Source: a virus
Lineage: Duplodnaviria > Caudoviricetes
Reading direction: 5' to 3' (one strand)
DNA: 57,578 nt
Virus record (IMG/VR): IMGVR_UViG_3300046049_000065
Location: 1-57,578 of that record
Shown here: positions 2,597 to 57,578 of the stretch, one piece after another
Layout of the letters: each line of letters begins with the position of its first letter
Numbering within the stretch: position 1 is the first letter of the stretch
The notes under the pieces: model-generated
What the model was told of the DNA's origin: nothing
Databases searched by the model: none
Seen by the model: only the letters and a program-made list of their open reading frames with translations
Position numbers and translations under genes: made by a program

Positions 2597-3385
2597 CTGC
2601 CGCCGGCAGGTGCGTTACTCGCGTTCGAGTCGCGAGCGGCGGTCTCCGGACGCCCGGGCGCAGCCCGGGTTGGCACACAAGCTGGCCCCGGCGCGGCCGG
2701 GCGTCCGTCCTGGTCCCGACTCCCCAGCCGTGTATCGCCCAAGCGACGGCGTCGCAAGACACCGTCGTGGCCCACGTTCCTATCGAAGATTTGGAGCGCT
2801 CGTGCCGCTCGCGATGCCGGTGTCCCCCTTCCCCACCCCGGCATCTGCGAGCGGCTGCCGGCATCGTTCGTTTCGTCCACTGACAGCTGGCCGTCGAGGC
2901 GGTCGGCACGCTGGCCCGGCTGGCTGGGGCCGTCCGAGTTCGACTCTCGGGGGGACCGCTTGGACGACCGCGAAACCCTCGCGGACCGTCCGGCCGCGTG
3001 GCGACCGCTATGGGGCGACCCTACCGAAAGGGGGACGTCACCTGCAGGCGGCGGGCCACCTACAAACGGGGTTCGACTCCCCGCGCGGTCTTTGGACCAT
3101 CGCGACGGCCGTCCCGTACGCTCCATACGGGGCCGCGGGCCGCCGTCGTCGGGGCCGCCCAGCCCCACTCCTGTATCGCTCGTCAACCATCCATCGCAGG
3201 CGCGGGAGTCGGTCCCGTTGCCGGACGCACCCGCCTCGCCAGCGTGGCAGCTCTCGAACAGGTCAGATCGGTTCCCACATTCGGGGGCGGCCGTCGCGGT
3301 GGTCCGGCCGACCCGGGCGGCACGCACCCCGGCGCTGTCATCGACAGCGGCCGCGCGTGCGGCGGTTCGACTCCGCCGGTCGGCA
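2597..3385 (+). ncRNA. putative structured RNA: array of four tRNA-like elements separated by long stems
   Basis: Four 5-bp T-stems with TTCGA(C/G)T loops at 2619-2635, 2934-2950, 3067-3083 and 3361-3377. Each is followed directly by a 7-nt strand that pairs to an upstream acceptor strand. No credible acidic ORF in the region. Confidence 0.7.
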
Positions 3386-3502
3386 CTCAGGCGTACAGCT
3401 CGCTTACTGCCCTGCAGCAGCGCGACCCGGGCCCCGAACCTACCAAAATCCAGACGCCCGGGTCGGGCTCGGACGACGGCCGCGCACGCGGACCGGGGTC
3501 AC

Positions 3503-43449: not shown

Positions 43450-44601
43450 ATGGCCGGGATTCGACAGACGATAGGTGGTGTCGTCCAGACGGCCACTGGC
43501 GTCGTGCAGACGACTCCGTCGTCGTCGACGACATCCGCGACGTGGCAAACAGCGACAGACTGGAATAGCGCACAATCCGAGAGCTACGTCCATCACGAAC
43601 AGCCCGCCAGTACCGACTGGGCAGCGGCTGATACCGTTGAGTTAGGCCACGATACTGATGGTGCGTCACTGCAAGCGTATTTCCCGTTCGATGAAAATTC
43701 CGGCTCGACGGCGACCGATGTCTCCGGGAATAGCAATGACGGGACCTACAATGGCCCCACGCTTTCTGCGGCGACGGGCATTTTGGGCGCCGATGTACCA
43801 AGTTTTGACGGTGCGGATGACTACGTTGAGTATCCACCCATCGGTATCGATTACAGTGGGTCGAGCGACTGGACGACCTCGCTGTGGGTGTATCTATCAG
43901 GTGGGTCCGGCAGCACCCAGAACGTCTGGCACCCTCGGGCGACACAGGACATGTTTATCGACAAAGACACGGGTGATGCGATTCGGTTTACGACCTATTC
44001 TGGTAGCCTGAACCGTATCAGTTCAACGACGAGCATAGCAACGGACCAATGGTATCATGTTTGTGTTGTTCACGATGCGTCACTGAGTTCGCCGTATCAG
44101 TTGTATCTCGATGGCACACAAGAAGCGTCTGGATCACTTTCTGACCCGGATTCGAAGAGTTCGTACAATTCGATCAGCGGCCAGTCACAGGGCGGTCTCG
44201 ATCGGTACTACTGGGACGGCTATATTGACGAAGTCCGGCTGTACGACCGCGCGCTGTCCGGCAGTGAAGTGACGACGCTCGCGCAGGGCGATTCGCCGAC
44301 CGGCTCGATTACGACGGACGCGAGGAATTTGAGTAGCGGGGTGCCGGACCAACTCGTGACGACCAGCACGCTCAACGGCGGGAGTATCGACGTTGTCGTC
44401 CACCAGGACACGAACACGGACGGCACGTCCGAGAACAGCGAGACGATATCGCTTGCCGGCGGCGCTGACGAGACGAACGCGCTTGACGGGACGACATTCG
44501 ACACCACGGCTGCCGACTACTGGGTCGAGCTGCAGCCATCCGTGTCGAATCCCGACGACGCTGCACCGACGATCGACACAGCCGAGATAGTAATAAACTG
44601 A
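43450..44601 (+). CDS. LamG/concanavalin A-like domain virion protein
   Basis: YFPFDE...D.SGN, FDGADDY, WYHV and GYIDEVRLYDRALS motifs. Confidence 0.88.
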   Translation: MAGIRQTIGGVVQTATGVVQTTPSSSTTSATWQTATDWNSAQSESYVHHEQPASTDWAAADTVELGHDTDGASLQAYFPFDENSGSTATDVSGNSNDGTYNGPTLSAATGILGADVPSFDGADDYVEYPPIGIDYSGSSDWTTSLWVYLSGGSGSTQNVWHPRATQDMFIDKDTGDAIRFTTYSGSLNRISSTTSIATDQWYHVCVVHDASLSSPYQLYLDGTQEASGSLSDPDSKSSYNSISGQSQGGLDRYYWDGYIDEVRLYDRALSGSEVTTLAQGDSPTGSITTDARNLSSGVPDQLVTTSTLNGGSIDVVVHQDTNTDGTSENSETISLAGGADETNALDGTTFDTTAADYWVELQPSVSNPDDAAPTIDTAEIVIN

Positions 44602-44607
44602 AAACCA

Positions 44608-45030
44608 ATGGCAACCTGTCACTGCGTGGCCGCTGTCTTGGACACGGACGGCGATGCACAGGCGCCGGTTGAATCGCCGACTGAACGCGCGGCCCGGATT
44701 CACGACCGCGTCTCGTCGAATGTGTTGGGGACGTATACTGAGGTGTTACCAGACCAGCATGTGACACCAACAGCGATATCGACTGATTTTTCGGATATTA
44801 GCACAGCGCGGATTCAGTTTTCGTATCGATTTGACGCGACCGAGGATAAGACAGCGATGCTGGATACGATTGAATCGTCTGTGCTTGATGACGCCGTTTG
44901 GTACCAGATACGCTACCATGCGTGTGAACACGACATCCAGACGGGTGTCGGTCTGGCAGATTGTCCTTCTCCGACCCTCGAGCGCGAGAGTGGTTCAGTA
45001 CCAACTGACGTCAAGACAAACATCAGTTAA
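44608..45030 (+). CDS. hypothetical protein
   Basis: ORF; YHACEHD...C. Confidence 0.65.
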   Translation: MATCHCVAAVLDTDGDAQAPVESPTERAARIHDRVSSNVLGTYTEVLPDQHVTPTAISTDFSDISTARIQFSYRFDATEDKTAMLDTIESSVLDDAVWYQIRYHACEHDIQTGVGLADCPSPTLERESGSVPTDVKTNIS

Positions 45031-45038
45031 ACGACACA

Positions 45039-45347
45039 ATGAGCGATAACACACCAACCCCCGACCGCTGTCTCGGAATCACGACCGACGGCCGCCGCTG
45101 CGGGCGGGCGGCCGGCACAGGCACCACGCACGACCACCTCTGTTATCACCACGACGACCAGACGCTGACACCGACGCAAGCGACACTCCTCGAGACGGAC
45201 ACTACCCGCATGGGAGTGTCGATCAAGGCGGGCGAAGAGGTCCACGTCCAGTTCGCCGACGGGCCGCGAATCGCCTACTCGCCGAGTTCGGTCGCCGACA
45301 GTGGCGATGGGGCGGACGCGCAGGCGTTTCTTGACGGATTAGAGTGA
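45039..45347 (+). CDS. hypothetical protein with CCCH-like motif
   Basis: RCLGITTDGRRC...CYHH. Confidence 0.65.
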   Translation: MSDNTPTPDRCLGITTDGRRCGRAAGTGTTHDHLCYHHDDQTLTPTQATLLETDTTRMGVSIKAGEEVHVQFADGPRIAYSPSSVADSGDGADAQAFLDGLE

Positions 45348-45637
45348 CCGACCGCGCCGGCCAGCGGCTCGCAGCTGGCGACGCCCCCGTCCGCAAGGCC
45401 GTCAACGGCCCGTCGGTCAACGAGCTGCATGCGGCGCTGCTGGGCGCCTGTCTGGGCGTCCTGTCGGCCCGCGCGGAGTCGCCTCAAGCGGCGCTGCTCG
45501 TCGCCCTCACGGCGCTCGTGTGGCCGGCACGCGGCGCGGTCGGCCTCCGGACCCTCCGACGGGAGCCGTGGTGGGCGCTTGTCGGGCTAGTTGTCGGCAT
45601 CGTGGTCGGCGATCGGACTGTGTCTGCGGCATCGTAG
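45344..45637 (+). CDS. small membrane protein
   Basis: Hydrophobic; REPWW motif. Confidence 0.6.
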   Translation: MTDRAGQRLAAGDAPVRKAVNGPSVNELHAALLGACLGVLSARAESPQAALLVALTALVWPARGAVGLRTLRREPWWALVGLVVGIVVGDRTVSAAS

Positions 45638-45699
45638 CCGGCGCTCCTCGCTGTTTTGGAGCGTCGGGAGTACACTGCAAGCGAGGCGCCCAGCGGCAG

Positions 45700-46512
45700 C
45701 TATCGGCGGCAGAGTACTTCGTGGAGCCGCCCGGCGTTCTCGGGGCTGGGCGTGGCGTCGCGTCTCTCCCAGTGAGCAACGGCGCTCGGCGAGACGCCGA
45801 CCGCGTCTGCGAGGTCGGCCTGCGAGAGGCCCAGTTCTTCGCGGGCCGCTGCGAGGTCGCTCCCGAGCGGAACGGTTTCAGGGTCTCTCGGCTCGGCGGC
45901 GGGATCATCGTCGCTCTTTTCATCCTCATCTGCGTCGCGGTCGCCGCGGATGGCGAGTCGCTTCGCGCGGCCCCACGAGCCGAACCGCCGCTGATACGTG
46001 TTCGCGTTGGGGACTCCCTCGGCGTCGTCCATTTCAGTCACCGTCGGCGGCTTCAACTGCTTCGCTGTAAATTCCCGGATGTACTCAAGCAGTTCATCGC
46101 GCGAGTACTTCGGGACCTCATTGCGTGGCTTCGTTACGCTCAGTCCAGCAGCCCGCAACGCATTATTGAATGACCCGAAGCGATTAGAAAGTGTTTTGAT
46201 GCTGATGTCAGCTTGCTCCCGCACTTCGACGGCCCCAGGCGACCGACCAAATTCATCTGCAAGATCGCGCAGCTCACTCAGCAATTCCTCCTCGGTGTAG
46301 GCCTGCCCGTCATCCCTCCGTTTGGCCCGTTCTTCGACGGCCTCGGCCGAGAATCCCGCTTCCAGAAGTGCCTGCTCCCACGACTCAAACCGATACTGGT
46401 ATGTGCCTTTGTGCGGGGCATCCGGTTCGTCTCGAAGATCGGCTTGCATCGGCGGGCGACCCTCTTCGCCGAGGTCCCGCAGCCACTGTAGCAGTTCGTC
46501 TCTGGAATACAT
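45700..46512 (-). CDS. homing-endonuclease-associated repeat protein (3 repeats) + XRE HTH
   Basis: Y(S/T)..ELL...RFGS(W/F)..AL.AAG x3; GLSQADLADAVGVSPSAVAHWE. Confidence 0.85.
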   Translation of the reverse strand: MYSRDELLQWLRDLGEEGRPPMQADLRDEPDAPHKGTYQYRFESWEQALLEAGFSAEAVEERAKRRDDGQAYTEEELLSELRDLADEFGRSPGAVEVREQADISIKTLSNRFGSFNNALRAAGLSVTKPRNEVPKYSRDELLEYIREFTAKQLKPPTVTEMDDAEGVPNANTYQRRFGSWGRAKRLAIRGDRDADEDEKSDDDPAAEPRDPETVPLGSDLAAAREELGLSQADLADAVGVSPSAVAHWERRDATPSPENAGRLHEVLCRR

Positions 46513-46520
46513 CGGCTATG

Positions 46521-46772
46521 TCACTCGGGAAACGCGATATCTGCACAGTCCTCGCACCGAACCTCGCCGTTGACGAGCGTCCAAGCGGCGACCAGCTCGC
46601 CACAGCTCGCACAGACCGGCGTCCCTGACTGGCCGCCTTTCCGCTCGCGCTCCTCGAGCGCCTCGGCCGCCCGACGCAACAGGCCGTCCCATGTCTCGCC
46701 GTCGCGCTTCAACGCCCGGAGCTGGGCGCGCGTCGCCTCGTCGGCCTTGATGTTGACCCGGCTGTCGCTCAT
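46521..46772 (-). CDS. RHH-like + zinc-finger protein
   Basis: LKRDGETWDGLLRR; CASC...CEDC. Confidence 0.7.
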   Translation of the reverse strand: MSDSRVNIKADEATRAQLRALKRDGETWDGLLRRAAEALEERERKGGQSGTPVCASCGELVAAWTLVNGEVRCEDCADIAFPE

Positions 46773-46860
46773 GCGTCGGTCTCGAATCGGACTGCGACGG
46801 TCGTCCCTTTGATGTCCGGATACTGGCTCGCGAATGTCTGGATGATGTTCGACATCGTTG

Positions 46861-47211
46861 TCATCTCGGCCCGTTGTCAAGCGCCTCACTCACAAATCCC
46901 GCAAACAGCGCCATCCGCTGCCCTCCGTCAAAGAAGCCATCGGGGTTTGCCTCTGTTGACTTCTCTCGCAGCCACTGTACGGTATCCTCGGAGTGGGTCA
47001 TGGCCTCCACAGTCTCGCGGAGTTGGATTGTCATCCCCTCGTCGGCGAAGGAGACGTCGTATCGCTCCTTCTCCCAGTCGCGGTACTCGATCTCGTACTC
47101 TTCGCCGAAGCGATTGATAAGGTCTCCATAGGGCCCGACCTCTATGCGGCCAATGTCGGCGTCAACGTAGACGGTATCGTCTTCGATGTGTGTCTCGTAT
47201 CGTTTCGACAT
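46861..47211 (-). CDS. hypothetical protein
   Basis: Acidic ORF. Confidence 0.7.
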   Translation of the reverse strand: MSKRYETHIEDDTVYVDADIGRIEVGPYGDLINRFGEEYEIEYRDWEKERYDVSFADEGMTIQLRETVEAMTHSEDTVQWLREKSTEANPDGFFDGGQRMALFAGFVSEALDNGPR

Positions 47212-47215
47212 ATTA

Positions 47216-47779
47216 CTAGTCCTCAACACGCACGGAGACGGTCGTTCCTTCGACGTCCGGGTGCTGGCTCGTGAACGTCAGCTCCTCCGTCTTCTTCAGG
47301 GCATTTCGGACGCGATTCTCCCACATCTCGACCACGGTGTTCCACCACTCGTCCCAGCCGTCTTCTTCGTCGTCAGTAAGTGGTCGAACGGTGCCGTCGT
47401 CGTCCCACGCGTCGATCTCGTCGCGGAATCGGTGCTGTTCCGTGCCGTAGTCAGGATAGCACCACTCGTTGCGGAAGTCGGGGTGGTGACTGCCCGCCCA
47501 GTGCCCGACAATGAGCGCTTCGGGGCTGATGTGGAGCGGCGTCTGGCTCAGCTCCGGCGGGTAGTACGCGTGCGCCTCGGAGACGTGCGGCGTCGCCTTT
47601 TTCTCTTCCTCCAGCGGCGGCGTGACGCGGAGGTCGTGACTCCGCTGTTCGTCCTCGTCGCGCTTGTTCCGTCGCATCGCCTCGACGACGTCGTCGGGGT
47701 TGACCACGACAGTGTCGAGGTCGGCTGCGGGGTGATCAGTAGTCGTTTCGTCGACCGTGGCGTCAGTGCCTCGTGCCAT
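47216..47779 (-). CDS. hypothetical protein
   Basis: Acidic, leaderless promoter upstream. Confidence 0.75.
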   Translation of the reverse strand: MARGTDATVDETTTDHPAADLDTVVVNPDDVVEAMRRNKRDEDEQRSHDLRVTPPLEEEKKATPHVSEAHAYYPPELSQTPLHISPEALIVGHWAGSHHPDFRNEWCYPDYGTEQHRFRDEIDAWDDDGTVRPLTDDEEDGWDEWWNTVVEMWENRVRNALKKTEELTFTSQHPDVEGTTVSVRVED

Positions 47780-47830
47780 GTATCCCTATTGTACCCCTTA
47801 CCACATAAATCTTTGGTACAAGTGGGATAC
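47780..47830 (-). promoter_or_regulatory. BRE/TATA promoter flanked by a 16-bp inverted repeat
   Basis: GTATCCCTATTGTACC / GGTACAAGTGGGATAC (14/16) around minus-strand AAAGATTTATG. Confidence 0.7.
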
Positions 47831-47835
47831 AGAAG

Positions 47836-47917
47836 TCACTCTATGCCGCGGTTCCGCCACTCTGCGACCCCCATCAAAGCTGGCCTGAAAGAACTAGAGG
47901 ACGATAGAAACGGGTAG
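47836..47917. pseudogene. deletion scar: cysH 3' end fused to the 3' end of the divergent regulator gene
   Basis: 47836-47875 matches 51836-51875 (35/40); 47872-47913 matches 56371-56412; joined at a shared CATC. Confidence 0.8.
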
Positions 47918-48058
47918 GCAATGGCGTCAGAGGCGGTCAGACGTCTCGGCGGCGTCCAGCGCCCGCACGCGCACCTCGGTGACGACCTCGCGGCCGACGG
48001 TTCGCCAGCACTCGCCCGTCCAGGTCTCCTCAATGCGGTCGTAGCGGGTAGTTCATCA

Positions 48059-49507
48059 TTATTTTTTCGAAAGGACGTTGAGCGAGTCTCCCAACTGAGA
48101 CCGAAGTTCGTCGCCATAGAACGTCCGTGTGTGCGGTGTCTCGATGTCGGCGGGCGTCGTTTCAACTTCCCACGATGGCTCCAGCGCCACCGCAGCGGCC
48201 GATATATCGATGATATGGTACCCACCGACCGGCGACGAGTGGTCAAGCAGGATGTCGCCCACTGCTATCGGCTGGACCACCGCGCCGACATCGACTGCAA
48301 TCGCGTCGATTCGTGGGTCGTCAGCCGACCCGGGCGAGCGGTCGACCTCAACCGCCGTCGAACTACCTCTGGGGACGCCGCCGGGGCTCTGCCGGCGGGG
48401 CCGGAGCCCGGCGAGCTGGAGCGCGCGGTTGAAGCTCCCGAGCCGCCGCTCAATCGTCGTCGAGGGGATGTCACTCTCGGCCTCGAACGCGGCCACGGTC
48501 GGGACGGCCCGCAGCTCATCAGCAACGCGGCGGACCGCCTCGACGAGTTCCATATCGGTGTAGGTCTTGGCGTACGCCTCTCGGCCAGGGTTCGGGGTAT
48601 ACCCAGCGGCCGCGACCGCCGCATTCCAGCGCTCAAAGTGCCGGAGCACCGTGTGCAAGGATAGCTCCGCATGGTTGGTCCAGTCATCGACGGTCGGGGC
48701 CTGTCCGCCGTCTGGGATACCGACCGCGGCGGCGACCGCGTGAATCTCCTCGAGGACATCCTCGGCGGTAATGTGTTGTCGAGGGTCTAACCCCGCCTGG
48801 ACCAGCGCCGCGGCCCACGAGCCGAACCGCTCGCGGTAGATCCTATACGAGTGGGGCCCGTCAGCGTTCATCTGCCGCTTCGACGGTCTGGCGGTTACCC
48901 CGCTCTTCCGATAGTTCGCTAGATCCCGCAATTCGGTGATCAACTCTCGGTCCGTCGGGCTGTCTCGCGGCCGAGTCGGTGGATCGATGGCAACTTCTTC
49001 GAGCGCCCTGTTCCAGTCACCCCACCGTTCTCGGTACGTCGTTGCGCCGTATGCGCCCGCCTCGTCCATATCTAGTTCACTCGGCGCCCGGCCCAACTCG
49101 CGCGTCAGACGCGCCAGTTCGTCCAGTAGGTCGGCATCGGACCGTTTCGTCCCCGTGTTCGGCTCGAAGCCGGCGGCCTCAAGTGCCGCCGAGAACGACC
49201 CAAAGCGGTCCTGAAATGTCCACACGTGCGGCGTCTCGGCGGCGTCGTTGACCATCTCGACGGTCGGTGTCTCCCCGGTCTCCGCGGCGAGCTCGTGCAA
49301 CATCTCGACCAGCGCGTCCGCATCCAGTGTCGACGGGCGCAGACCCGCAGCCTCCAGTGCCCCGTCCCACGATCCGAACCGCCGTGTGTAGGTGGGATAA
49401 CTCGGGCTGTCCTCGTGCGCTTGCAGGTCGCTCACGGTCGGGCGCCCATCGACGGTGCCCGCGAGCTCCTGGAGCATTTCAATCAGCTCGTCTTCTGTGT
49501 ATGGCAT
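48059..49507 (-). CDS. homing-endonuclease-associated repeat protein (6 repeats)
   Basis: Six RFGSW..AL.AAG-type units; no HNH motif. Confidence 0.85.
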   Translation of the reverse strand: MPYTEDELIEMLQELAGTVDGRPTVSDLQAHEDSPSYPTYTRRFGSWDGALEAAGLRPSTLDADALVEMLHELAAETGETPTVEMVNDAAETPHVWTFQDRFGSFSAALEAAGFEPNTGTKRSDADLLDELARLTRELGRAPSELDMDEAGAYGATTYRERWGDWNRALEEVAIDPPTRPRDSPTDRELITELRDLANYRKSGVTARPSKRQMNADGPHSYRIYRERFGSWAAALVQAGLDPRQHITAEDVLEEIHAVAAAVGIPDGGQAPTVDDWTNHAELSLHTVLRHFERWNAAVAAAGYTPNPGREAYAKTYTDMELVEAVRRVADELRAVPTVAAFEAESDIPSTTIERRLGSFNRALQLAGLRPRRQSPGGVPRGSSTAVEVDRSPGSADDPRIDAIAVDVGAVVQPIAVGDILLDHSSPVGGYHIIDISAAAVALEPSWEVETTPADIETPHTRTFYGDELRSQLGDSLNVLSKK

Positions 49508-50211
49508 CAGCCGAGATCCACCCCCCTTTCATCGCAAAATTCAACGAAGTCATCGAGCCATACCAGATACTCCTCTGACGTGTAGGCGAGCCGGACGAGC
49601 CACCGTTCTTCGCCCCGGTCCGTGACGGCCAGCTCAAAGCCATCAATCGTGACGCGTCTGTCATCAATCGATATTCGACCACTGGAGAGTGTCTGTGTGT
49701 CTCCGTTGTGCGTCATGGTGAGTTCTGTGCCGATGATAGTGGGCGTTCTGGCGACAGCGTCCGGCGAGACGGGCCGTGGGAACGCACCATTGGCCCATGT
49801 CTGTGGAGGATTCGCCCCTCGGCCGCGGCGGTCGGGCGCTGGGCCATCGAACCCGGCGGCATCCAGCACTGATTGCCAGCCGCCGAAGCGGGTCGTGAGT
49901 GTCGCGTGCGACGGGAGCGAGTCGTTATCTTGCACGTCGGCCGATGATGGGGGGTGGCCCAGCGTTTCGCCGAAGTCCCGCACCAGTTCGAGAAGCTCCT
50001 CGTCCGTATATTTGTCTGGAATGCGGTCCGAGACGGCGTCTTCGTCGAACCCGGCCGCCCGGAACGCCGCTATGAGCGATCCAAAGTGGTCCCGGTAGTG
50101 ATATCCTGACGGGGCGTCGGGGTGGTCGCGAAGGTCTTCGGACGTGGGTGGCGATTCTGGCCCATCTGCGAGCTGCCACAGCCACTCGATGAGTTCCTCT
50201 CGGTCGGTCAT
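49507..50211 (-). CDS. homing-endonuclease-associated repeat protein (2 repeats)
   Basis: HFGSLIAAFRAAG, RFGGWQSVLDAAG; alternative start at 50241. Confidence 0.8.
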   Translation of the reverse strand: MTDREELIEWLWQLADGPESPPTSEDLRDHPDAPSGYHYRDHFGSLIAAFRAAGFDEDAVSDRIPDKYTDEELLELVRDFGETLGHPPSSADVQDNDSLPSHATLTTRFGGWQSVLDAAGFDGPAPDRRGRGANPPQTWANGAFPRPVSPDAVARTPTIIGTELTMTHNGDTQTLSSGRISIDDRRVTIDGFELAVTDRGEERWLVRLAYTSEEYLVWLDDFVEFCDERGVDLG

Positions 50212-50234
50212 GTCGAGCAGGTTCTCAAGTATCG

Positions 50235-50274
50235 TTGACATCCCCCTCGCCCTGAAGGACGGGGCTTCCGCTTG
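50235..50274 (-). mobile_element. 40-bp single-hairpin IS200/IS605 remnant
   Basis: TTAG|CAAGCGGAAGCCCCGTCCTTCAGGGCGAGGGGGATGTCAA: left-end start fused to right-end finish. Confidence 0.65.
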
Positions 50275-50359
50275 CTAAACGTCATCCGCGTCACTGTCGA
50301 GGGGTTGCGCCTCATCCCGCCCCGCCTCGGGGTGGTCGGGATACGCCGGGTCGCGGACA

Positions 50360-51748
50360 TTACGCTTCCGGCAGTGTCTGTGTCGCTTTGTCGAGCGCGT
50401 CAGAGACGTTTTTGTGGTCGGCATCGCCCTTCCGAGCGCCCCACGCGTTCCGAGACTCGCCGCGGATCGCAACGCCGTAGTAGGCCCACGCCTGGCCGGG
50501 CGCGAGGCCGCGGCGCTGGAGGCCGTTGACGGCGGCCTCGACGAACCGCTGTCCGGCCTCGCCGTCTGCGGGGAGACGGACGACGAGCGGGTAGGTCACG
50601 CCCCAGCTGTACTCGCGGTCGATCTGCTCGGCGACGCGGTGGTGGACCGACGAGACGACCCGCTCGGCGGTGTCGTCGACGGTGACCGGGCCGTCGTAGG
50701 CCTCGAGCGCCCGACAGACCGCATCGCGCTCGCCGGTGTCGAGGACGACCACGCCGTCGTCCTGCGCGACGACGAGTGTGTCGGTGCGCTCGATGCTGTC
50801 CAACCACTCGCCCCAGACGGTCTCGACGCCGTACTGGACGTGGGCGAGCAGCTCGCGGACGTCGTCGACGGTGAGCGCTTCGGGGTGGCCGGGGTCGCCG
50901 TGCTGGGCAAGGGCGTCCTCGATGATCGCGTCGTCAACGTAGTCGGTGACGCGGTCCGTACCGACCTCGCCGCCGTCGCACGCTGCATCGGGGGTATCCC
51001 CACCGCCACCGTCACCGTCACTGTCGCGCTCCCAGAGCGTGTTCGGGGGCGTCCCTCTGCCCGTCTTGTCAAAGAACTCGGCGCTCCAGCCGTCCCACCC
51101 GCTCTCAATTGAGTCCACACGGTCGGGGCGGTACGTTGCGACGACAGCGGTTGTCTCGTCGATCTGCGCTTCGGCGCGGAGCCGCCCGTCGTAGACGTAC
51201 ACGTGCTCAACCGGACAGGAGTCCGGGACGCTGCCGTAGTAGTTGCTAAGGTCACTTTTCCGAAACATCGTCGGGACCGTAACCGTCTGCCCATCGTACT
51301 CAACTTCGACCTGGCCGCCGTCGGTGACGATTTCGTGCTCGCCGGTACTCCCGCCGTCAGCGGTCTCCTCGTCGGCCGCCTCGCCGTCGGCCCCGTCGCC
51401 CTCGTTGTCGGCGGCGAACGCCTCGCCGCTCAGCGAAACCGTGATCTCGTGCTCATGCTTGCCGCCGGAGACCTCAATGGTGATCGTCGCCGTGTCGCCG
51501 GTGATCTCAACGGTGCCGCCGGAGTGCTTGGCCTCGTTGTTGCTGACGATCTCGTGGGTCTGGAGGTCCACGTAGAGGTCGTACTTGTCGGCCTTGGCGA
51601 TGCCGTCGTTGATGTACAGCCGGTCGTGGCCGTACTTGCTCCAGCGGTCAATCTCCAAGTGGTCGCTCGGCTCGGCCCAGTCCTGCTTGTAGGCGCCGTT
51701 GTAAAACGCTTCGAGCTCGATGTCGTCGGCGTCGGTGAGTGCGGGCAT
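50360..51748 (-). CDS. mosaic multi-domain protein, HTH-like C-terminus
   Basis: WSKYGHDRLYIN N-terminal domain; TDGG/CDGG linkers. Confidence 0.75.
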   Translation of the reverse strand: MPALTDADDIELEAFYNGAYKQDWAEPSDHLEIDRWSKYGHDRLYINDGIAKADKYDLYVDLQTHEIVSNNEAKHSGGTVEITGDTATITIEVSGGKHEHEITVSLSGEAFAADNEGDGADGEAADEETADGGSTGEHEIVTDGGQVEVEYDGQTVTVPTMFRKSDLSNYYGSVPDSCPVEHVYVYDGRLRAEAQIDETTAVVATYRPDRVDSIESGWDGWSAEFFDKTGRGTPPNTLWERDSDGDGGGGDTPDAACDGGEVGTDRVTDYVDDAIIEDALAQHGDPGHPEALTVDDVRELLAHVQYGVETVWGEWLDSIERTDTLVVAQDDGVVVLDTGERDAVCRALEAYDGPVTVDDTAERVVSSVHHRVAEQIDREYSWGVTYPLVVRLPADGEAGQRFVEAAVNGLQRRGLAPGQAWAYYGVAIRGESRNAWGARKGDADHKNVSDALDKATQTLPEA

Positions 51749-51766
51749 GGTCTGTCTCGCCTCACT

Positions 51767-51813
51767 TGGTAGTAATGAACCCATGATAATAAAGGTTGGG
51801 TTTTATACTACCA
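51767..51813 (-). promoter_or_regulatory. TATA promoter flanked by a 17-bp inverted repeat
   Basis: TGGTAGTAATGAACCCA / TGGGTTTTATACTACCA (14/17) around minus-strand CTTTATTAT. Confidence 0.7.
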
Positions 51814-51835
51814 CCTTGACATCCTTCTCTGTGCG

Positions 51836-52648
51836 TCACTCGATGTCTCTATTCCGCCACTCTGCGACCCCCATCGCCGCGCCGCCGATCTCCTCGAACT
51901 GCGGATCAAAAAACGTCGTGAACCGCGCCCGCTCGTAGGCCCGCGGGCTGCCGTCGCCGGTCGTCGCTGCGAGTCGGTCGTAGTGGTCCGGATATGTGAG
52001 ATTCTGATCGACGATGTAGGCCCACACATCGCGCGCCGACCACTCGCGGATCGGGAACGCGGCGGGTTGGCCGAGGGATTCGCCGTACAGGCCGCTAAGT
52101 TTTCGGTCGCGCCCCCCGCTCTCGCCGGCTCGCAGGCCGACGAGCTGGCGGCTAACCATGCCTGTCTGGGCTAAGACCCCCGCCAACCGAGAGAGGCTTC
52201 CATCCGGGTCGGAGATACCATCGTCGGTGTTGAGACCGCGCTTGAATCGGTCTGCGCTGGAGAAGGGTCTGACTTCCGTGGCTCCCCGAGCTGCAACGAA
52301 CAGTCGGGTGTCGGGCACGAGGGCTCGAGCGGCCTCAACAACCGCCCGCTCTATCTCCCGGGGGATGAGCCGAGCGCCCCAGTCCCAGTGGAACGCTCGA
52401 TGGCGGCAGTCCGCGCGGTTCGCGAGCGCCAGCACGACTGTTGAGTCCTTCCCGCCCGAAAACGCCACGGCCGCATTCGGGTCGCGGTCGAACACCTGCT
52501 CGATCTCCGCGACGGCCTCGTCGGGGCGGTCGCCCAGCTCCTGGTCGGCGTGCGCCTGGAACGCCCGCCGCGTCCGGTCGGCCATTCCGTCACTCCCACG
52601 GTCGAAGTCGAACTCGGCACTGTCCTCTGGGTCCGGGAAATCTACCAC
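51836..52648 (-). CDS. cysH: CysH/PAPS-reductase-like PP-loop protein (type IV-B ancillary)
   Basis: AFSGGKDS, GLRAGES..R, PIREWSARDVWAYI; GTG start with GGAGGTGG SD. Confidence 0.9.
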   Translation of the reverse strand: MVDFPDPEDSAEFDFDRGSDGMADRTRRAFQAHADQELGDRPDEAVAEIEQVFDRDPNAAVAFSGGKDSTVVLALANRADCRHRAFHWDWGARLIPREIERAVVEAARALVPDTRLFVAARGATEVRPFSSADRFKRGLNTDDGISDPDGSLSRLAGVLAQTGMVSRQLVGLRAGESGGRDRKLSGLYGESLGQPAAFPIREWSARDVWAYIVDQNLTYPDHYDRLAATTGDGSPRAYERARFTTFFDPQFEEIGGAAMGVAEWRNRDIE

Positions 52649-53340
52649 GCCGGGTCCACCTCCGCCCCGGGCGGTGCGCACTCGGTCGCCCACTGTGTGT
52701 ACCAGTACGGCGTCCGATAGGTGAGCGTCTGCTGGTCATCCCACTCGTCGAGGACCTCCGTCGGGAGCGGTCGCATCGCAACGCCCTTGCTGGGATGCAC
52801 GAGTGAGTGGTCGGCATTCAGCTCGCGCAGGCCCCAGTCGTCGACGCGGCCGAATCCCTTGGCGGTATGCTTCCCAAGGTCGGCCAGATGGGTTTCGAGA
52901 AGGTGCTCAATCCGCTCGCGGTCGCCGCGGAGGTAGAACGTACACCGGCGGGCAGGCCGGTAGACGACGTCGATCATCTGTGACTTGAACGCGCCGCCGC
53001 CAATAGGGATCTTTGATCGGGGACGAGCGCCGCCGACCGTATGTGCCCGGACTTCGTCGTACGAGGAGTACAGCGTCGTCTCGACGGTCCGGTCGGTGTC
53101 GAACTGTGAGACGGAGGCGTGGGCGATGCCGTCGGTGTACGCCAGCCCGGCGTCGACGGCGTCCACATCTCGGAGGTCGGCCGGCCCGTCCTCTTCGAGG
53201 TTGGCGACCCAGCGGTCGTATTCGCGGCCGGCGTGGTCGATGAGGGCGAGCCGCTGGAGCACCCCGTCGCCATTGATCCACGGATGGCCGAGCGCGACGC
53301 CGCTGCCGAGTTCGAGCGTCAGCTGGAGGTTCGCGGTCAT
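52642..53340 (-). CDS. csf3: Csf3 (Cas5-group RAMP)
   Basis: DGVL, GDRERIEHLL, LGKHTAKGFGRV..W, MRPLP, YRTPYW. Confidence 0.85.
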   Translation of the reverse strand: MTANLQLTLELGSGVALGHPWINGDGVLQRLALIDHAGREYDRWVANLEEDGPADLRDVDAVDAGLAYTDGIAHASVSQFDTDRTVETTLYSSYDEVRAHTVGGARPRSKIPIGGGAFKSQMIDVVYRPARRCTFYLRGDRERIEHLLETHLADLGKHTAKGFGRVDDWGLRELNADHSLVHPSKGVAMRPLPTEVLDEWDDQQTLTYRTPYWYTQWATECAPPGAEVDPAW

Positions 53341-54122
53341 GCGCACACCTCGTGCGCTTCGGCGTCGGCGCGGATCTGGAGCATCCCGAACCCGTAGGAG
53401 CGCTTTGCCCCGACACCGCGTGCGAGGAGTTCGTTCAGTGCCGCGCGGTGGGCGTCGTCTCGAACCTCGTAGCGCAGGTCCCACTTGCTGGCGATGAGCG
53501 TGATTGTCTCCGCCGGCGTGACGTCGACGCGGACGCCGTAGGTTTTCCGATGCCCGTACTCGTCGAACAGCCGCAGCGACGGACGCTCGAGTCCAGCCTC
53601 GTGTTCGAGCACATGACCGGCAGTGCGGTGGAGCGCCGTTTTGAACGCTTCCGGCGAGTGCTCGCGGTGGCTCCAGTACGTCGGCGTCGCGCCGTGGTCG
53701 TTCTCGCTTGGCTGCTCGACAGTGACGACAACCCCCGATGTCGTCGTGAGGACGCCCGCAGACCCGGGGTCGCCGACACCCGTTTCAAGCGGTTTCGCGG
53801 CGCGGGTCTCGAACACCATCGACCCGGCAGTGAGTTCGGGCTCGCGTTGAAGCCCGTCCGCGATAGCCTCCATGACATCCAACCGCGGCGCGGCGATAAG
53901 CAGATGCACGCCGTCGCCTGCATCAAGGGTCGCGCCGGGAGCGTGGTCGTCTCGGATGGGTATCAGATCGGAGAACGTGAACGGCGGCCGTTGACTCTCT
54001 CGGTGGTCGTCAATGCCCGCACGCTGGAGCGTCTGGCCGAGCCGTCCTCTGATGTTGCGGTGGTACTGTCGCTCCCACGCACAGTCGTGGGTCGCCTGGA
54101 GCCGGAGTAACAGCTGGTACAT
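53337..54122 (-). CDS. cas6: Cas6 endoribonuclease (haloarchaeal type I-like)
   Basis: LLLRLQA...YHRNIRGRL, PFTFS and C-terminal GVGAKRSYGFG (GhGxxxxxGhG). Confidence 0.88.
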   Translation of the reverse strand: MYQLLLRLQATHDCAWERQYHRNIRGRLGQTLQRAGIDDHRESQRPPFTFSDLIPIRDDHAPGATLDAGDGVHLLIAAPRLDVMEAIADGLQREPELTAGSMVFETRAAKPLETGVGDPGSAGVLTTTSGVVVTVEQPSENDHGATPTYWSHREHSPEAFKTALHRTAGHVLEHEAGLERPSLRLFDEYGHRKTYGVRVDVTPAETITLIASKWDLRYEVRDDAHRAALNELLARGVGAKRSYGFGMLQIRADAEAHEVCA

Positions 54123-54128
54123 GAGTGG

Positions 54129-55031
54129 CTACCTGTCGGCGATGGTGTCGAGCGCCTCGATGATCTCGCCGCCCTGTTCGTCGACGTACTCTGTGTAGCG
54201 GTCGGCTTCCGAAAGGTCAAGCTCGTAGCTGATGTCGACCCGACCGAGGCCGGCCGCGGACATTGCGCCGATGGTCCCCTCCTCCTGCCAGAGCCGGAGA
54301 CCATGAAGGAGACAGGATCGTGCGAGATCCGTCGTGCGGGACTCGAATTTGACGCTGTGTTCGAACTGCGCGCCGGGGATCAGCACGTCAAAGTGGTAGA
54401 TCATCTGGTGGCTGTCGACATCGTCGGATTCGGTGTTGTCTTCTGCATCGGAATCAAACCCAAAGTCGACATCCATCCCAGTGTCGTCGGGCTCGTCGTG
54501 CATTCGCGTCTGGTGCATCTCGCTGACGAACTCGCGCCACGAGATGTCGGACTGGGTTTCGTTTCGGTAGTTGTTTTCCTCGCAGATCAACGCCAAATGG
54601 TGGATATTGACCGTCCCCTCAAACATCTGGTTGCCTGTTGAGCCGCCGAGTAGGTCGATAAGTGGGAACGTGTTGCGGATCGTTCGACGCAGCCCAACAT
54701 CAATCTCCGCCTTGCCGTCTTTTTCGAGGACGCCGCCCGCCCGCAGCAGGTGGTAGAGCCGCTCGTCGGTGATCGTGTAGTCAAGTCGTTGGACGAGGTC
54801 CTCTGCTAGGAGTCGTCGGAGGTGGCCGCGGATTGAGTTTCCTGAGACGAATGGCACGTCCTCGAATGTGTTCCCGTCAAGCACCCGGATTTTTTCTTTG
54901 CGGAGAAGTTGTTTGTTACCTGTCTGTGCGTCCGCTCCCGTATGGATCTGCGAAATGGCGGTCGCCCCGCCGACGACAGCTTCGGTCGCGCCGAGTTCGG
55001 TACCTTTAAGATATGCCTCTGTAGTGCTCAT
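54129..55031 (-). CDS. csf2: Csf2 (Cas7-group backbone)
   Basis: VPFVSGNSIRGHLRR, R..FPLIDLLGG, QMIY..DVLIPG, IGAMSAAGLG. Confidence 0.9.
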   Translation of the reverse strand: MSTTEAYLKGTELGATEAVVGGATAISQIHTGADAQTGNKQLLRKEKIRVLDGNTFEDVPFVSGNSIRGHLRRLLAEDLVQRLDYTITDERLYHLLRAGGVLEKDGKAEIDVGLRRTIRNTFPLIDLLGGSTGNQMFEGTVNIHHLALICEENNYRNETQSDISWREFVSEMHQTRMHDEPDDTGMDVDFGFDSDAEDNTESDDVDSHQMIYHFDVLIPGAQFEHSVKFESRTTDLARSCLLHGLRLWQEEGTIGAMSAAGLGRVDISYELDLSEADRYTEYVDEQGGEIIEALDTIADR

Positions 55032-55032
55032 G

Positions 55033-55452
55033 TTAGTCCTCCGTGATGAAGTCGCTGAGTTCGCTGGTCGTCGGATTCGATTCGGCGTCGGTGTCGCTGT
55101 TCTGTTTCGCCTCGAAGTAGTTCTGAACCGTCTCTCGTGTCTTAGCCGTAAGCCAGATATCCTCTTTGCGGAGGATTTCCATCGCCAGGTCGCTGTCCGC
55201 GACGAGCGGGTCCAAGTGTTCGGTCGGCAGGTCCGGCGACGCCATGTTCAGTCCATGGGCGAGTTTCTTGAACGCGCCGTGGACGCTGCCCGCGTTCGAT
55301 GCCGCTTCCAGGCGTTCCTCGAAGGTTGCGCTTCGGCGCTTTTTGTCGGGGAACTCTCCCCAGTCGGTCTCTCGCCAGAACTCGGAGAGAATGACAATCC
55401 AGTCCTGTGCGAGCTTATTCTCGTGGTCGGTGAGGTCGCTTGCAAGTACCAT
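55033..55452 (-). CDS. cas11: Cas11-like small subunit
   Basis: 139-aa helical protein between csf1 and csf2. Confidence 0.6.
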   Translation of the reverse strand: MVLASDLTDHENKLAQDWIVILSEFWRETDWGEFPDKKRRSATFEERLEAASNAGSVHGAFKKLAHGLNMASPDLPTEHLDPLVADSDLAMEILRKEDIWLTAKTRETVQNYFEAKQNSDTDAESNPTTSELSDFITED

Positions 55453-56135
55453 TATTGGATGAGTTGCACCGCAATCCGCCAGTCCTCACGGCCGGTGAGG
55501 TCGGTGTTGATACGGTCTACCTCGTCGCGCTCGAAGTCGTACCGGGCGAGGTCGGCGGCCCGGACCGGGCCCTTCAGCGCGCGTTTCGAGGGCTCGTTCT
55601 CGCGGCCGCGGAGCCGTTGGCCGAACGCGACCATGTCGGCGAACCGCTCGCGGTTGATGGTGACCAGGCGCTTGTCCACGAGCAGCTGGTAGTCCTCGCG
55701 GGACGTATTGAGCGTCTGTGCGAAAATCCAGCCATTCAGGACGGTGAGAAAGTCGGATTCGTCCTTGTACTTTGCCATCCATGGGCCCTCCGGCGGGTCC
55801 AGCAGGACATCGAGGAGTTCGGGCCGTTCCTTGATGATCTGGACGCCGTCTTCGGGTGTGGCGATCCAGTGGTAGCGCCGGTAGTCCATCTGGCCGGCGA
55901 CGTGCTCACACCGGTAGCAGATGCCGTCGCCGTCGCTGAGCGCTCGGTCGCTCGTGAACGCATCGGAGAAGACGCCATTGGTTCGTCGGACGGGCTTGAT
56001 CGGGCCGCCGAGGCCGCAGATCATGCACTTGCCCGTCTCGTCCGGGTCGTCTGGCGGTTCTACGTCGTCCGTTTCGGCGACGATGGCTGAGAGCCGTCGC
56101 GCGTTCTCGGACGCCTCTGTCTGTAACTCTGGCAT
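55452..56135 (-). CDS. csf1: Csf1 (Cas8-like large subunit with Zn finger)
   Basis: CMICG...FSDAFT...GDGICYRC; first gene of the operon. Confidence 0.75.
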   Translation of the reverse strand: MPELQTEASENARRLSAIVAETDDVEPPDDPDETGKCMICGLGGPIKPVRRTNGVFSDAFTSDRALSDGDGICYRCEHVAGQMDYRRYHWIATPEDGVQIIKERPELLDVLLDPPEGPWMAKYKDESDFLTVLNGWIFAQTLNTSREDYQLLVDKRLVTINRERFADMVAFGQRLRGRENEPSKRALKGPVRAADLARYDFERDEVDRINTDLTGREDWRIAVQLIQ

Positions 56136-56177
56136 GCCGCGGTGGTAAATCGTGTCTCTGTGGCTATTAGCCTTTCG

Positions 56178-56212
56178 GACAGGTGGACACAACACTCATT
56201 TGTCTACCTGTC
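56178..56212. promoter_or_regulatory. operator-like inverted repeat between the cas operon and the divergent regulator
   Basis: GACAGGTGGACA-N11-TGTCTACCTGTC (11/12), directly upstream of minus-strand GAAAGGCTAATAG. Confidence 0.65.
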
Positions 56213-56272
56213 GTATTGTCGAGCAGGAGCAAAACTAGAATGTCTAATGGACGGAGAGAGATAGGCGAAACT

Positions 56273-56431
56273 ATGCGACCGAACATCCAAATCAGCCATC
56301 AGCTGAACGGACGCGTGAAAGATTACGCTGCTAAACACGACCTTACGACCGGAGAGGCCTACAAACAAATCATCAAAGCTGGCTTAGAAGAATTAGAGGA
56401 CGATGGAAGCGAGTCAGCTACCAACGGCTGA
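56273..56431 (+). CDS. small RHH-like regulator; C-terminus supplied by the IS right end
   Basis: MRPNIQISHQLNGRVKDYA...AYKQIIKAGL. Confidence 0.7.
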   Translation: MRPNIQISHQLNGRVKDYAAKHDLTTGEAYKQIIKAGLEELEDDGSESATNG

Positions 56432-57578
56432 AGCCGTTGGCTTGTCGGTGGACTCCCGTTCTGCCGACACATACTGGTCGGACGCCACTTCAGTAGCGTT
56501 CACGGTCATCACCCCCGACTTTAGGGCGTACTGACAGAACGCCCCTCCAGCGGGGGACTTCTGCCCTCGCTGGAGTTTTAGTGCAAGTTTCCGAGCAATA
56601 TTCTTCGCGGCGTTGTAGTCGGCGTTTGCCGTGTACGAACAGTCCAAGCACTCGAAGTGTTGCCCGTCGCGGTTTTCATCAAGGGTCGTGCCGCACTTCG
56701 AGCATTGCTGGCTCGTGTAGGACGGGTCAACCGTTTCCACTACGATGCCAGCCAGTTCCGCTTTGTGTTTCGTCTGCTGTTGGAGTTCGCGGAACGCCCA
56801 CTGCTGGAACTTCTTGCCGTCGCTGATACGGTCACGAATCTGCTCCAAGTCCTCGAACGCGATATGCGAACAGTTCTGTTGATTGGCTTCTTCGACAAGT
56901 GCCTTCGAGCATCGGTGCAGATAGTCCTCACTCCAGCGTCCAAACCTGTCACCGATACGGTGGTAGGTCAGGTGGGCACTTCGCGTGCCGGTCTGTTGGA
57001 GGCTGGCACGCCGCTTCTCGAATTCGTGGCGCTGGTGGTTGAGGAAGTCAGCATTGCCGACGAATCTGCCTGTTGAAGTCACGGCGATGTGGTCATCAAC
57101 GTTGCAGTCCACGCCAAGCACTCTCGAATGCTCGGCTTTCTCAGGACGGGCAACGTCGAGTTCCCGTTCCATTGCCGCGTGGAGGTAGAACTCGTCGGAT
57201 TCGCTATCGTAGTGGACGGTGCTGGTTGAGAAGGAGTAGTCGTCGTTCAGCAGGTATTCGCCGTGTGGCGTGCCGTCCGGGTTGTCGGGCAGGTCGTAGT
57301 CGCATTCGACTCTGCCGTTGATTGTGGCGAGACTTACTTTGTCGCGGTAGTAGGTGGCGGCTCGCTTGTCATAGACGATACTGAACGTGTCGTACTCGGG
57401 TTTGCTGGTGTTCTCGCCGTCAGCAAGCCGGTCAACACAGTTTCCAATATCGTCGGTGGCACGTTTGATGGCTTTCTGGACGAGGTTCGCGTGCAGGCCG
57501 TCCGTCTCGTGGCGGAGTTCGTGGTAAATGGCGGCCTCGGCTTCGCTCTTGCTGGTCACGCAGTCCTCATTGGGATAG
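56413..57578 (-). mobile_element. IS200/IS605-family element (right end visible)
   Basis: Hairpin CCAACGGCTTCAGCCGTTGG followed by TAGCTGAC terminus. Confidence 0.85.
56414..57578 (-). CDS. tnpB: TnpB RNA-guided nuclease (5' end outside window)
   Basis: RuvC GVD, FEDL and ADYNAA; zinc finger CSKC/CLDC. Confidence 0.95.
   Translation of the reverse strand, partial: YPNEDCVTSKSEAEAAIYHELRHETDGLHANLVQKAIKRATDDIGNCVDRLADGENTSKPEYDTFSIVYDKRAATYYRDKVSLATINGRVECDYDLPDNPDGTPHGEYLLNDDYSFSTSTVHYDSESDEFYLHAAMERELDVARPEKAEHSRVLGVDCNVDDHIAVTSTGRFVGNADFLNHQRHEFEKRRASLQQTGTRSAHLTYHRIGDRFGRWSEDYLHRCSKALVEEANQQNCSHIAFEDLEQIRDRISDGKKFQQWAFRELQQQTKHKAELAGIVVETVDPSYTSQQCSKCGTTLDENRDGQHFECLDCSYTANADYNAAKNIARKLALKLQRGQKSPAGGAFCQYALKSGVMTVNATEVASDQYVSAERESTDKPTASAVGS

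Follow-up and report, generated by a model that had tools for sequence, protein, structure and literature searches.

The 82 bases at positions 47836–47917 of a haloarchaeal virus record are made up of two gene ends, those of a cysH-like gene and of a small Arc/RHH-like regulator, which meet at a 4-base sequence, CATC, that is also present at both parent sites. Most probably, this scar is what an internal deletion has left of a diverged second cysH...regulator unit, its interior having been lost by illegitimate recombination at CATC and the 82 bases having since drifted as dead DNA.

Results

The virus record and its intact module

The window, by which we mean the whole stretch of DNA analysed, is an entire IMG/VR virus record (IMGVR_UViG_3300046049_000065), linear, 57,578 bases long and 82% complete according to CheckV. 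Genes for a large terminase, portal, head protease, tape measure and tail proteins lie on its plus strand, its G+C content is 56–72%, and two studies of halite metagenomes include runs that contain its DNA, which makes it a tailed virus or provirus with a haloarchaeal host. The genes of the rightmost 12 kb lie mostly on the minus strand, several of them without a known family, and the record terminates inside a multi-copy IS. ARAGORN placed a tRNA-Asp with the unusual anticodon ATC at 3307–3386, a possible false call that overlaps long ORFs.

An intact type IV-B-like module is found at the right-hand end of the window. Its genes run on the minus strand, starting on the left with a cysH-like gene (51836–52693; PAPS_reduct, PF01507, 40.4 bits against a cut-off of 22.5) for which the homologues suggest a start about 15 codons inside the listed ORF, giving 270 aa. 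Next to it is a csf3 (Cas5)-like gene (52642–53484; TIGR03116, E 4.2e-10, below the curated cut-off), whose ORF as listed probably starts too early, followed by a Cas6-like gene (53337–54122; TIGR01877, E 4.6e-13, 50.1 bits against a cut-off of 58.65), a csf2 (Cas7)-like gene (54129–55031; TIGR03115, E 5.1e-12, below cut-off), a 139-aa gene with no family match that is assigned to the cas11 position by its place alone (55033–55452) and a csf1-like gene (55452–56195; TIGR03114, E 3.5e-9, below cut-off). The Csf profiles are the best or sole NCBIfam matches of csf1, csf2 and csf3, all of them far below the curated cut-offs. The small Arc/RHH-like regulator (56240–56431, plus strand) is divergent from csf1, and its last 6 codons, from 56414, are derived from the IS. 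This gene order agrees with that of a plasmid locus, L112. No CRISPR array was found in the record (no direct 16-mers 40–110 bases apart). On the left, the homology of the module ends 1 base outside the cysH stop codon and the flanks differ; on the right, the edge is masked by the IS. Other than the scar halves, no repeats bracket the module.

The two halves of the scar

A repeat search matched the left half of the scar, 47835–47875, to the cysH-like 3' end at 51835–51875 (41 nt, 88%) and the right half, 47872–47915, to the 3' end of the regulator at 56371–56414 (44 nt, 84%). When 47820–47930 was compared by BLAST with the entire 57,578-base record, just two non-self matches were returned, with E values of 8.7e-10 for the cysH half and 1.1e-8 for the regulator half. 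The intact module, 4 kb to the right, has its gene ends in this same order and orientation. The minus strand of 47836–47874 reads as the last 12 codons of the cysH-like gene and a TGA stop (MGVAEWRNRGIE, against MGVAEWRNRDIE at the end of the intact ORF), and a run of 24 nt, TTCCGCCACTCTGCGACCCCCATC, is identical between both cysH copies. The plus strand of 47873–47917 reads as the last 14 codons of the regulator and a TAG stop (IKAGLKELEDDRNG, against ...IKAGLEELEDDGSESATNG in the intact regulator, where the segment corresponding to the right half of the scar is ...IKAGLEELEDDGSE...). Both halves thus retain the reading frame and the native stop codon. The original prediction, made from the sequence of the window, had described the left half as a cysH 3' end with 24 identical bp and the right half as the 3' end of the divergent regulator; repeat search, BLAST and translation all bear out these assignments, and the coordinates given for the scar were correct to within 1 base, the left match beginning at 47835.

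The halves overlap in CATC, at 47872–47875. The same 4 bases were predicted at 51872 and 56371, and we find them at 51872–51875 and 56371–56374, positions that belong to the intact paralogue, which here stands in for the lost copy's own sequence. At a random junction, the chance of 4 or more bases of microhomology is about 0.02.

The likeness is confined to the scar. The flanks gave no alignment beyond the two halves, and a sensitive self-comparison of 44000–48058 with 48059–57578 gave nothing further except likeness among HNH-repeat domains. No other fragment of any module protein was found in 1–51800. A wider duplication taking in the flanks was considered and ruled out: the HNH-repeat domains alone are similar, and the 187-aa and 474-aa proteins that neighbour the scar and the intact module are unrelated. 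Searches at the scar found no RNA family or tRNA and no open frame with a start codon, and a scan for bacterial-type promoters and terminators, which has archaeal promoters outside its range, found no pattern.

Gene ends and the nature of the divergence

The ends preserved in the scar recur among homologues. Seven of the 58 listed cysH homologues have the C-terminal motif EWRNRxIE, and in one of the 58 (P0006, with 85% identity overall) the C-terminus is exactly the RNRGIE of the scar. For the regulator, 33 homologues were found besides the window's own protein, all having MRPNI.I.H.LNGRVKDYA in common, and in 12 of the 33 the protein ends exactly 47 residues after MRPN, which is the register of the stop codon in the scar. 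By these comparisons, both scar halves are true gene ends.

Between the cysH remnant and the intact gene there are 5 changed bases in 4 codons and 1 residue change, a CGC/AGA difference keeping Arg. In the regulator remnant, 7 bases differ across 6 codons, with 4 residue changes, all but one of them within the last three residues; here a CTG/TTA double change keeps Leu. Summed over both halves, there are 12 base differences, of which 7 are synonymous, and 5 residue changes. When 12 random substitutions were placed on the intact ends in 200,000 simulated trials, 5 or fewer residue changes resulted in 0.9% of trials (P = 0.009). Most of the divergence therefore arose with both copies under coding constraint, and the prediction of mostly synonymous changes holds. 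The scar derives from a distinct module lineage, ~ 12–16% diverged, and is no partial duplicate of the intact module made recently. The tail of the scar's regulator is of the window type (IIKAGLEELEDDGSE) and not of the TnpB-linked type (IIEAGLEAVEHPDEQ), which favours a regulator that accompanied a csf module.

An insertion sequence at the end of the intact regulator

The right-hand match stops at 56414, the inner edge of the TnpB gene of an IS200/IS605-type element (56414–57577, minus strand) that runs off the contig end. The border of this IS, at 56410–56414, lies at the former stop codon of the regulator, and the extra SATNG tail of the window's regulator is found in 0 of the 33 homologues. 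When the TnpB element was compared with copies on haloarchaeal plasmids, the similarity started at 56410–56413 in 5 of 8 matches. Contigs from the halite community have loose ends at 56411, 56413 and 56414 with a depth of 55–173, against 0.05–38 elsewhere in the stretch compared; the IS is multi-copy in the community. An IS-free allele from run X2 continues after 56414 with AAATG..., giving GAG TAA, in a loose end of 30 letters. The homology border, the contig breaks and the IS-free allele agree, so the IS200/IS605-type element has inserted at the regulator's stop codon and added SATNG*. The native regulator ended ...DDGSE*, and the scar aligns to this native end without a gap. Because the IS insertion sets the edge of the right-hand match at 56414, that edge does not give the original extent of the homology. 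The IS origin of the SATNG* tail had been overlooked in the original prediction.

The regulator family and its partners

The regulator family is present in 21 haloarchaeal plasmid records. The cysH-like gene is present in one plasmid record, from which a regulator match is absent. In 6 of the 8 haloarchaeal plasmid loci that we read, the regulator lies 38–50 bp upstream of, and divergent from, tnpB; in one of the others it is beside an 'HNH endonuclease', and the last has no annotated neighbour and shares its backbone with a TnpB-bearing locus. TnpB and the regulator together form a unit of ~ 1.62 kb whose homology borders are sharp when plasmids from different haloarchaeal genera are compared (L119, 4597–6216; L120, 4597–6213; L121, 1599–3221; L123, 1594–3218). 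These units look like archaeal arc-tnpB elements. In the window, the divergent partner of the regulator is csf1, and the sole tnpB is convergent with it and part of the later-inserted IS.

In an AlphaFold monomer model of the regulator (pLDDT 83), two helices are predicted and no strand. Foldseek ranked RHH proteins (SvtR, PutA, ORF56 and Arc) highest, all with E of 1.3 or more, and a separate match to SvtR has E 0.21. Together, these results lend weak support to an RHH fold.

Genes and elements flanking the scar

To the left of the scar, downstream of the cysH remnant, is a 187-aa gene with no family match (47216–47779, minus strand). An inverted repeat with 17-nt arms (47779–47795 and 47815–47831, 88%) brackets an A+T-rich box just upstream of this gene and abuts the scar; repeat and box together are likely to be the promoter/operator of the 187-aa gene. 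To the right, and convergent with the regulator remnant, is a second remnant (47927–48052, minus strand), the 3' part of a small gene with ~ 38 codons and a stop but no start, reading ...YDRIEETWTGECWRTVGREVVTEVRVRALDAAETSDRL*. In an alignment with the C-terminus of P0134, a longer protein, 28/33 residues are identical. It is without its 5' part, the frame being closed just upstream by stop codons at 48053–48061, beside the 3' end of a 482-aa HNH-repeat gene (stop 48059–48061). Three gene ends thus follow one another in the stretch 47836–48058, a trace of two or more rearrangements there.

Between the scar and the intact module lie two HNH_repeat (PF18780) genes (48059–49507 and 49507–50241, both on the minus strand), and a third is at 45700–46512. 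These three genes cluster around the scar and have 2 to 6 homing-endonuclease-associated repeats each, one of them with an HTH_3 domain in addition; no nuclease domain was detected in the three. Downstream of the intact cysH-like gene is a 474-aa gene (50360–51784, minus strand), an adjacency that recurs in an IMG/VR contig, L117.

The junction in halite metagenomes

Logan contigs, that is contigs and not raw reads, of four halite-metagenome runs from two studies (X1, X2, X4 and X6) were compared with the window at 88% likeness. In all four runs, contigs bridge 47872–47875 and reach far more than 31 bases to each side. The bridging contig of X1 (47529–47937) has 0 differences from the window, that of X6 (47277–48134) has 6, that of X2 (45475–48001) has 37 and 4 gaps, and that of X4 (47757–49318) has 69 differences over 1,562 bases and no gaps. 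As X1 may be the window's own source sample, the identical contig found there does not count as independent; those of the other three runs represent diverged strains. Thus, an assembly chimera, the danger to which the original prediction had itself pointed, is excluded as far as contigs allow.

One further contig from X4 (depth 11.5, shorter side 59 bases) joins 47816 to 51838 by way of 40 other letters. The first ~ 23 of the 40, read by eye, resemble 47817–47837, the left flank of the scar, and ~ 17 more follow; the contig then matches the cysH 3' end to 51896, which is 21 bases past CATC. With these extra letters, the contig cannot be explained as simple recombination between the two repeats of the window. 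A related genome thus has, at the scar's position and beside the upstream region of the 187-aa gene, a cysH 3' end that extends into the body of the gene. It covers 59 bases of cysH, and joints found at 88% likeness in metagenomes can stem from other organisms. In that contig, the cysH 3' end is the one part of a module that is seen at this position. The right arm of the inverted repeat is retained in the same contig.

Other joints are found in the community: 45667 to 48050 in X6, 45706 to 47947 in X4 and a back-joint from 51015 to 47055, with GGCCT between the sides, in X1, X2 and X6. The contigs point to a stretch, 45667–51838, that is a mosaic in the community and of which the scar-bearing 2.3-kb segment may be absent or replaced in some strains.

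Searches for close relatives

When IMG/VR was scanned with the 187-aa protein or with cysH as single queries, no close relative came up. Searches for close relatives with DNA context, using the exact 24-mer and a degenerate pattern for the N-terminus of the regulator, gave no match. A scan of metagenome and genome contigs with a profile from the cysH alignment found distant PAPS-reductase relatives alone, with full-length identity up to ~ 34% and higher identity limited to P-loop segments of 30–40 residues, and GenBank phages matched neither the region nor cysH nor the regulator. The longest contigs given for cysH homologues and for regulator homologues were never equal in size, a comparison too coarse to weigh on either side. 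Two degenerate cysH patterns matched in L117 and L126 alone. L117 starts inside cysH and is 89% alike over 116 bases at the cysH end, and homologues of the 474-aa gene come next, as at the intact module; the X4 variant contig places a cysH end beside the 187-aa gene, and thus the two cysH copies have different, separately attested downstream neighbours. The record of L117 (35% complete) had no match to csf2 or to the regulator, an absence without weight in so incomplete a record. The 474-aa gene (50360–51784) corresponds in L117 to two shorter genes at 163–1186, a fusion or split between the two viruses. L126 is a distant IMG/VR virus, with 32% identity in cysH, in which csf2, csf3, cysH and a Cas6-like gene are found together.

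Discussion

Origin of the scar

When the inside of a segment is deleted between short direct repeats, its two outer ends stay behind, and haloarchaea such as Haloferax volcanii repair breaks by microhomology-mediated end joining. The scar is readily accounted for in these terms. A second unit would have stood next to the 187-aa gene, with the cysH-like gene at its left end, the small Arc/RHH-like regulator at its right end and, between them, probably csf3, cas6-like, csf2, cas11-like and csf1 genes. It would have belonged to a different module lineage, with ~ 84–88% DNA identity to the intact one, and would have diverged while its genes were still working. Illegitimate recombination would then have joined a CATC lying 36 bases into the 3' end of cysH to a second CATC lying 42 bases into the 3' end of the regulator, in a single event that removed everything in between, probably through replication slippage or microhomology-mediated end joining. 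Left over, each with its stop and facing outward, would be 12 terminal codons of cysH and 14 of the regulator. If the lost interior was equal in length to that of the intact copy, 4,495 bp (51876–56370) would have been deleted. The deletion may have taken place in the present genome or before the segment arrived there.

The surviving sequence amounts to 39 + 45 bases, and the interior is read off the intact copy. The regulator family pairs with TnpB or an 'HNH endonuclease' elsewhere, and therefore the right half by itself is no proof of a csf operon between the halves. The loss of a whole module of ~ 4.5 kb by microhomology, as first proposed, has in its favour the diverged collinear ends, the CATC overlap and a real junction; its content and length are those of the intact copy. 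Likewise, the 'second copy' of that proposal is upheld as far as the diverged second ends of cysH and regulator go, and both modules may once have shared a genome, or the scar may have come in with its deletion already made. The further claim that cysH-to-regulator moves as one cassette was not confirmed, given that none of the 21 plasmid records with the regulator is the cysH record and that TnpB is the neighbour in 6/8 loci. Because the regulator family is promiscuous, mobility of the cassette is something that we infer.

That promiscuity, with 21 plasmid records and mostly TnpB for a neighbour, also bears on a different origin, in which a single illegitimate join at CATC between two genomes or units brought together a cysH end, from a virus genome with a cysH module beside the 187-aa gene, and a regulator end from some other context, the partner being a co-infecting relative or a plasmid, so that the lineage never had a full module between the ends. 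The halite community does contain mosaic joints (47816 to 51838, 45667 to 48050, 45706 to 47947 and, in three runs, 51015 to 47055), and the truncated gene followed by HNH-repeat genes to the right of the scar indicates repeated rearrangement. However, a join of this kind would have had to reproduce the order and orientation of the intact module exactly and to pick up a regulator of the module-linked sequence type, whereas a deletion within one unit requires one event and no special partner; we consider the join between genomes unlikely.

It is more doubtful still that the 82 bases were kept for a function, either as paired end sequences at which cassettes could land or be replaced by homologous recombination, or as a piece of the control region upstream of the 187-aa gene. 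The scar abuts the inverted repeat and likely promoter, it shares with the intact cysH end a 24-base identical run that could support recombination, and its length is unchanged in contigs up to ~ 4% different (69 differences in 1,562 bases and no gaps in X4). Yet retention across ~ 4% divergence requires no selection, the similarity to the intact copy follows codon structure and not any motif, and the scar has no RNA family, no bacterial-type terminator or promoter pattern (archaeal promoters being outside the scan) and no open frame with a start. As for an assembly chimera or chance similarity, the record is derived from a metagenome and ends in a multi-copy IS, but the junction is bridged by contigs in four runs of two studies, three of them from diverged strains, and the two halves, each matched at E of 1e-8 to 1e-9, abut; this we regard as barely conceivable. 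Deletion within a diverged second unit thus stays the reading that we prefer.

Relation to known systems

Type IV-B loci consist of csf1, cas11, csf2 and csf3 with a cysH-like gene and are found mostly on plasmids and prophages (PMC8175902, PMC7038947). In the terms of these two papers, the module of the window is like them in its csf1-, csf2- and csf3-like genes, its small gene in the cas11 position, its cysH-like gene beside csf3 and its lack of an array. It is unlike them in being in a tailed haloarchaeal virus and in having Csf matches below the NCBIfam curated cut-offs. The definition of type IV-B is without Cas6 and array; the window has no array but does have a Cas6-like gene, and IV-B loci with Cas6 are on record, though rare (PMC7038947).

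A virus-borne type IV-B system was described in the 'Fuxiviridae' of Bathyarchaeia, with csf1, csf2 and csf3, a CysH-like gene next to csf3 and a mini-array; by its own statement, that paper deals with type IV systems previously unseen in archaeal viruses (PMC10848311). The window has in common with the 'Fuxiviridae' system, as described there, an archaeal virus as carrier, csf1-, csf2- and csf3-like genes, and a CysH-like gene beside csf3. In contrast to that system with its mini-array, the window has no array, a Cas6-like gene and a second copy decayed to a scar (PMC10848311).

Arc is known as the RHH protein of arc-tnpB elements, which belong to the IS605-family transposons, and it represses divergent promoters (bioRxiv 10.64898/2026.09.24.754181). 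The plasmid homologues of the window's regulator resemble those elements, as far as the preprint describes them, in being divergent from tnpB at 6/8 loci (bioRxiv 10.64898/2026.09.24.754181). The regulator of the window differs in having the csf operon as its divergent partner; it is a putative RHH protein and, by analogy, may repress the divergent promoter.

Implications

We know of no function for type IV-B systems. Our literature search, partial in its coverage, found no paper dealing with haloarchaeal viruses that carry type IV modules, and none on scars of this kind. A remnant of a microhomology deletion is a routine and familiar kind of feature, of which the scar is a new example; the module around it, a virus-borne and IV-B-like one that includes Cas6 and is coupled to an Arc-like regulator, is more interesting than the scar.

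A broader idea, which we put forward as a long shot, is that the Arc/RHH-like gene and its divergent promoter form a portable control unit that is coupled interchangeably to TnpB (in IS-like units of ~ 1.6 kb), an HNH endonuclease or a csf–cysH operon in haloarchaeal mobile elements, in which case the scar would record cargo turnover at a regulator-anchored unit inside a virus. If this were true, type IV-B modules would spread among haloarchaeal viruses as regulator-bounded cassettes, and two module lineages would have competed in the window's virus or succeeded one another within it.

Read as the remnant of a deletion, the scar is evidence, in the sequence itself, that two diverged type IV-B-like modules were present, simultaneously or successively, in one lineage of tailed haloarchaeal viruses, which discarded one of them. 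A virus that keeps and turns over IV-B modules, under the putative control of a regulator family from TnpB elements, provides a start for asking what role these modules have in the virus, and the scar shows that CRISPR-related modules are gained and lost in viruses.
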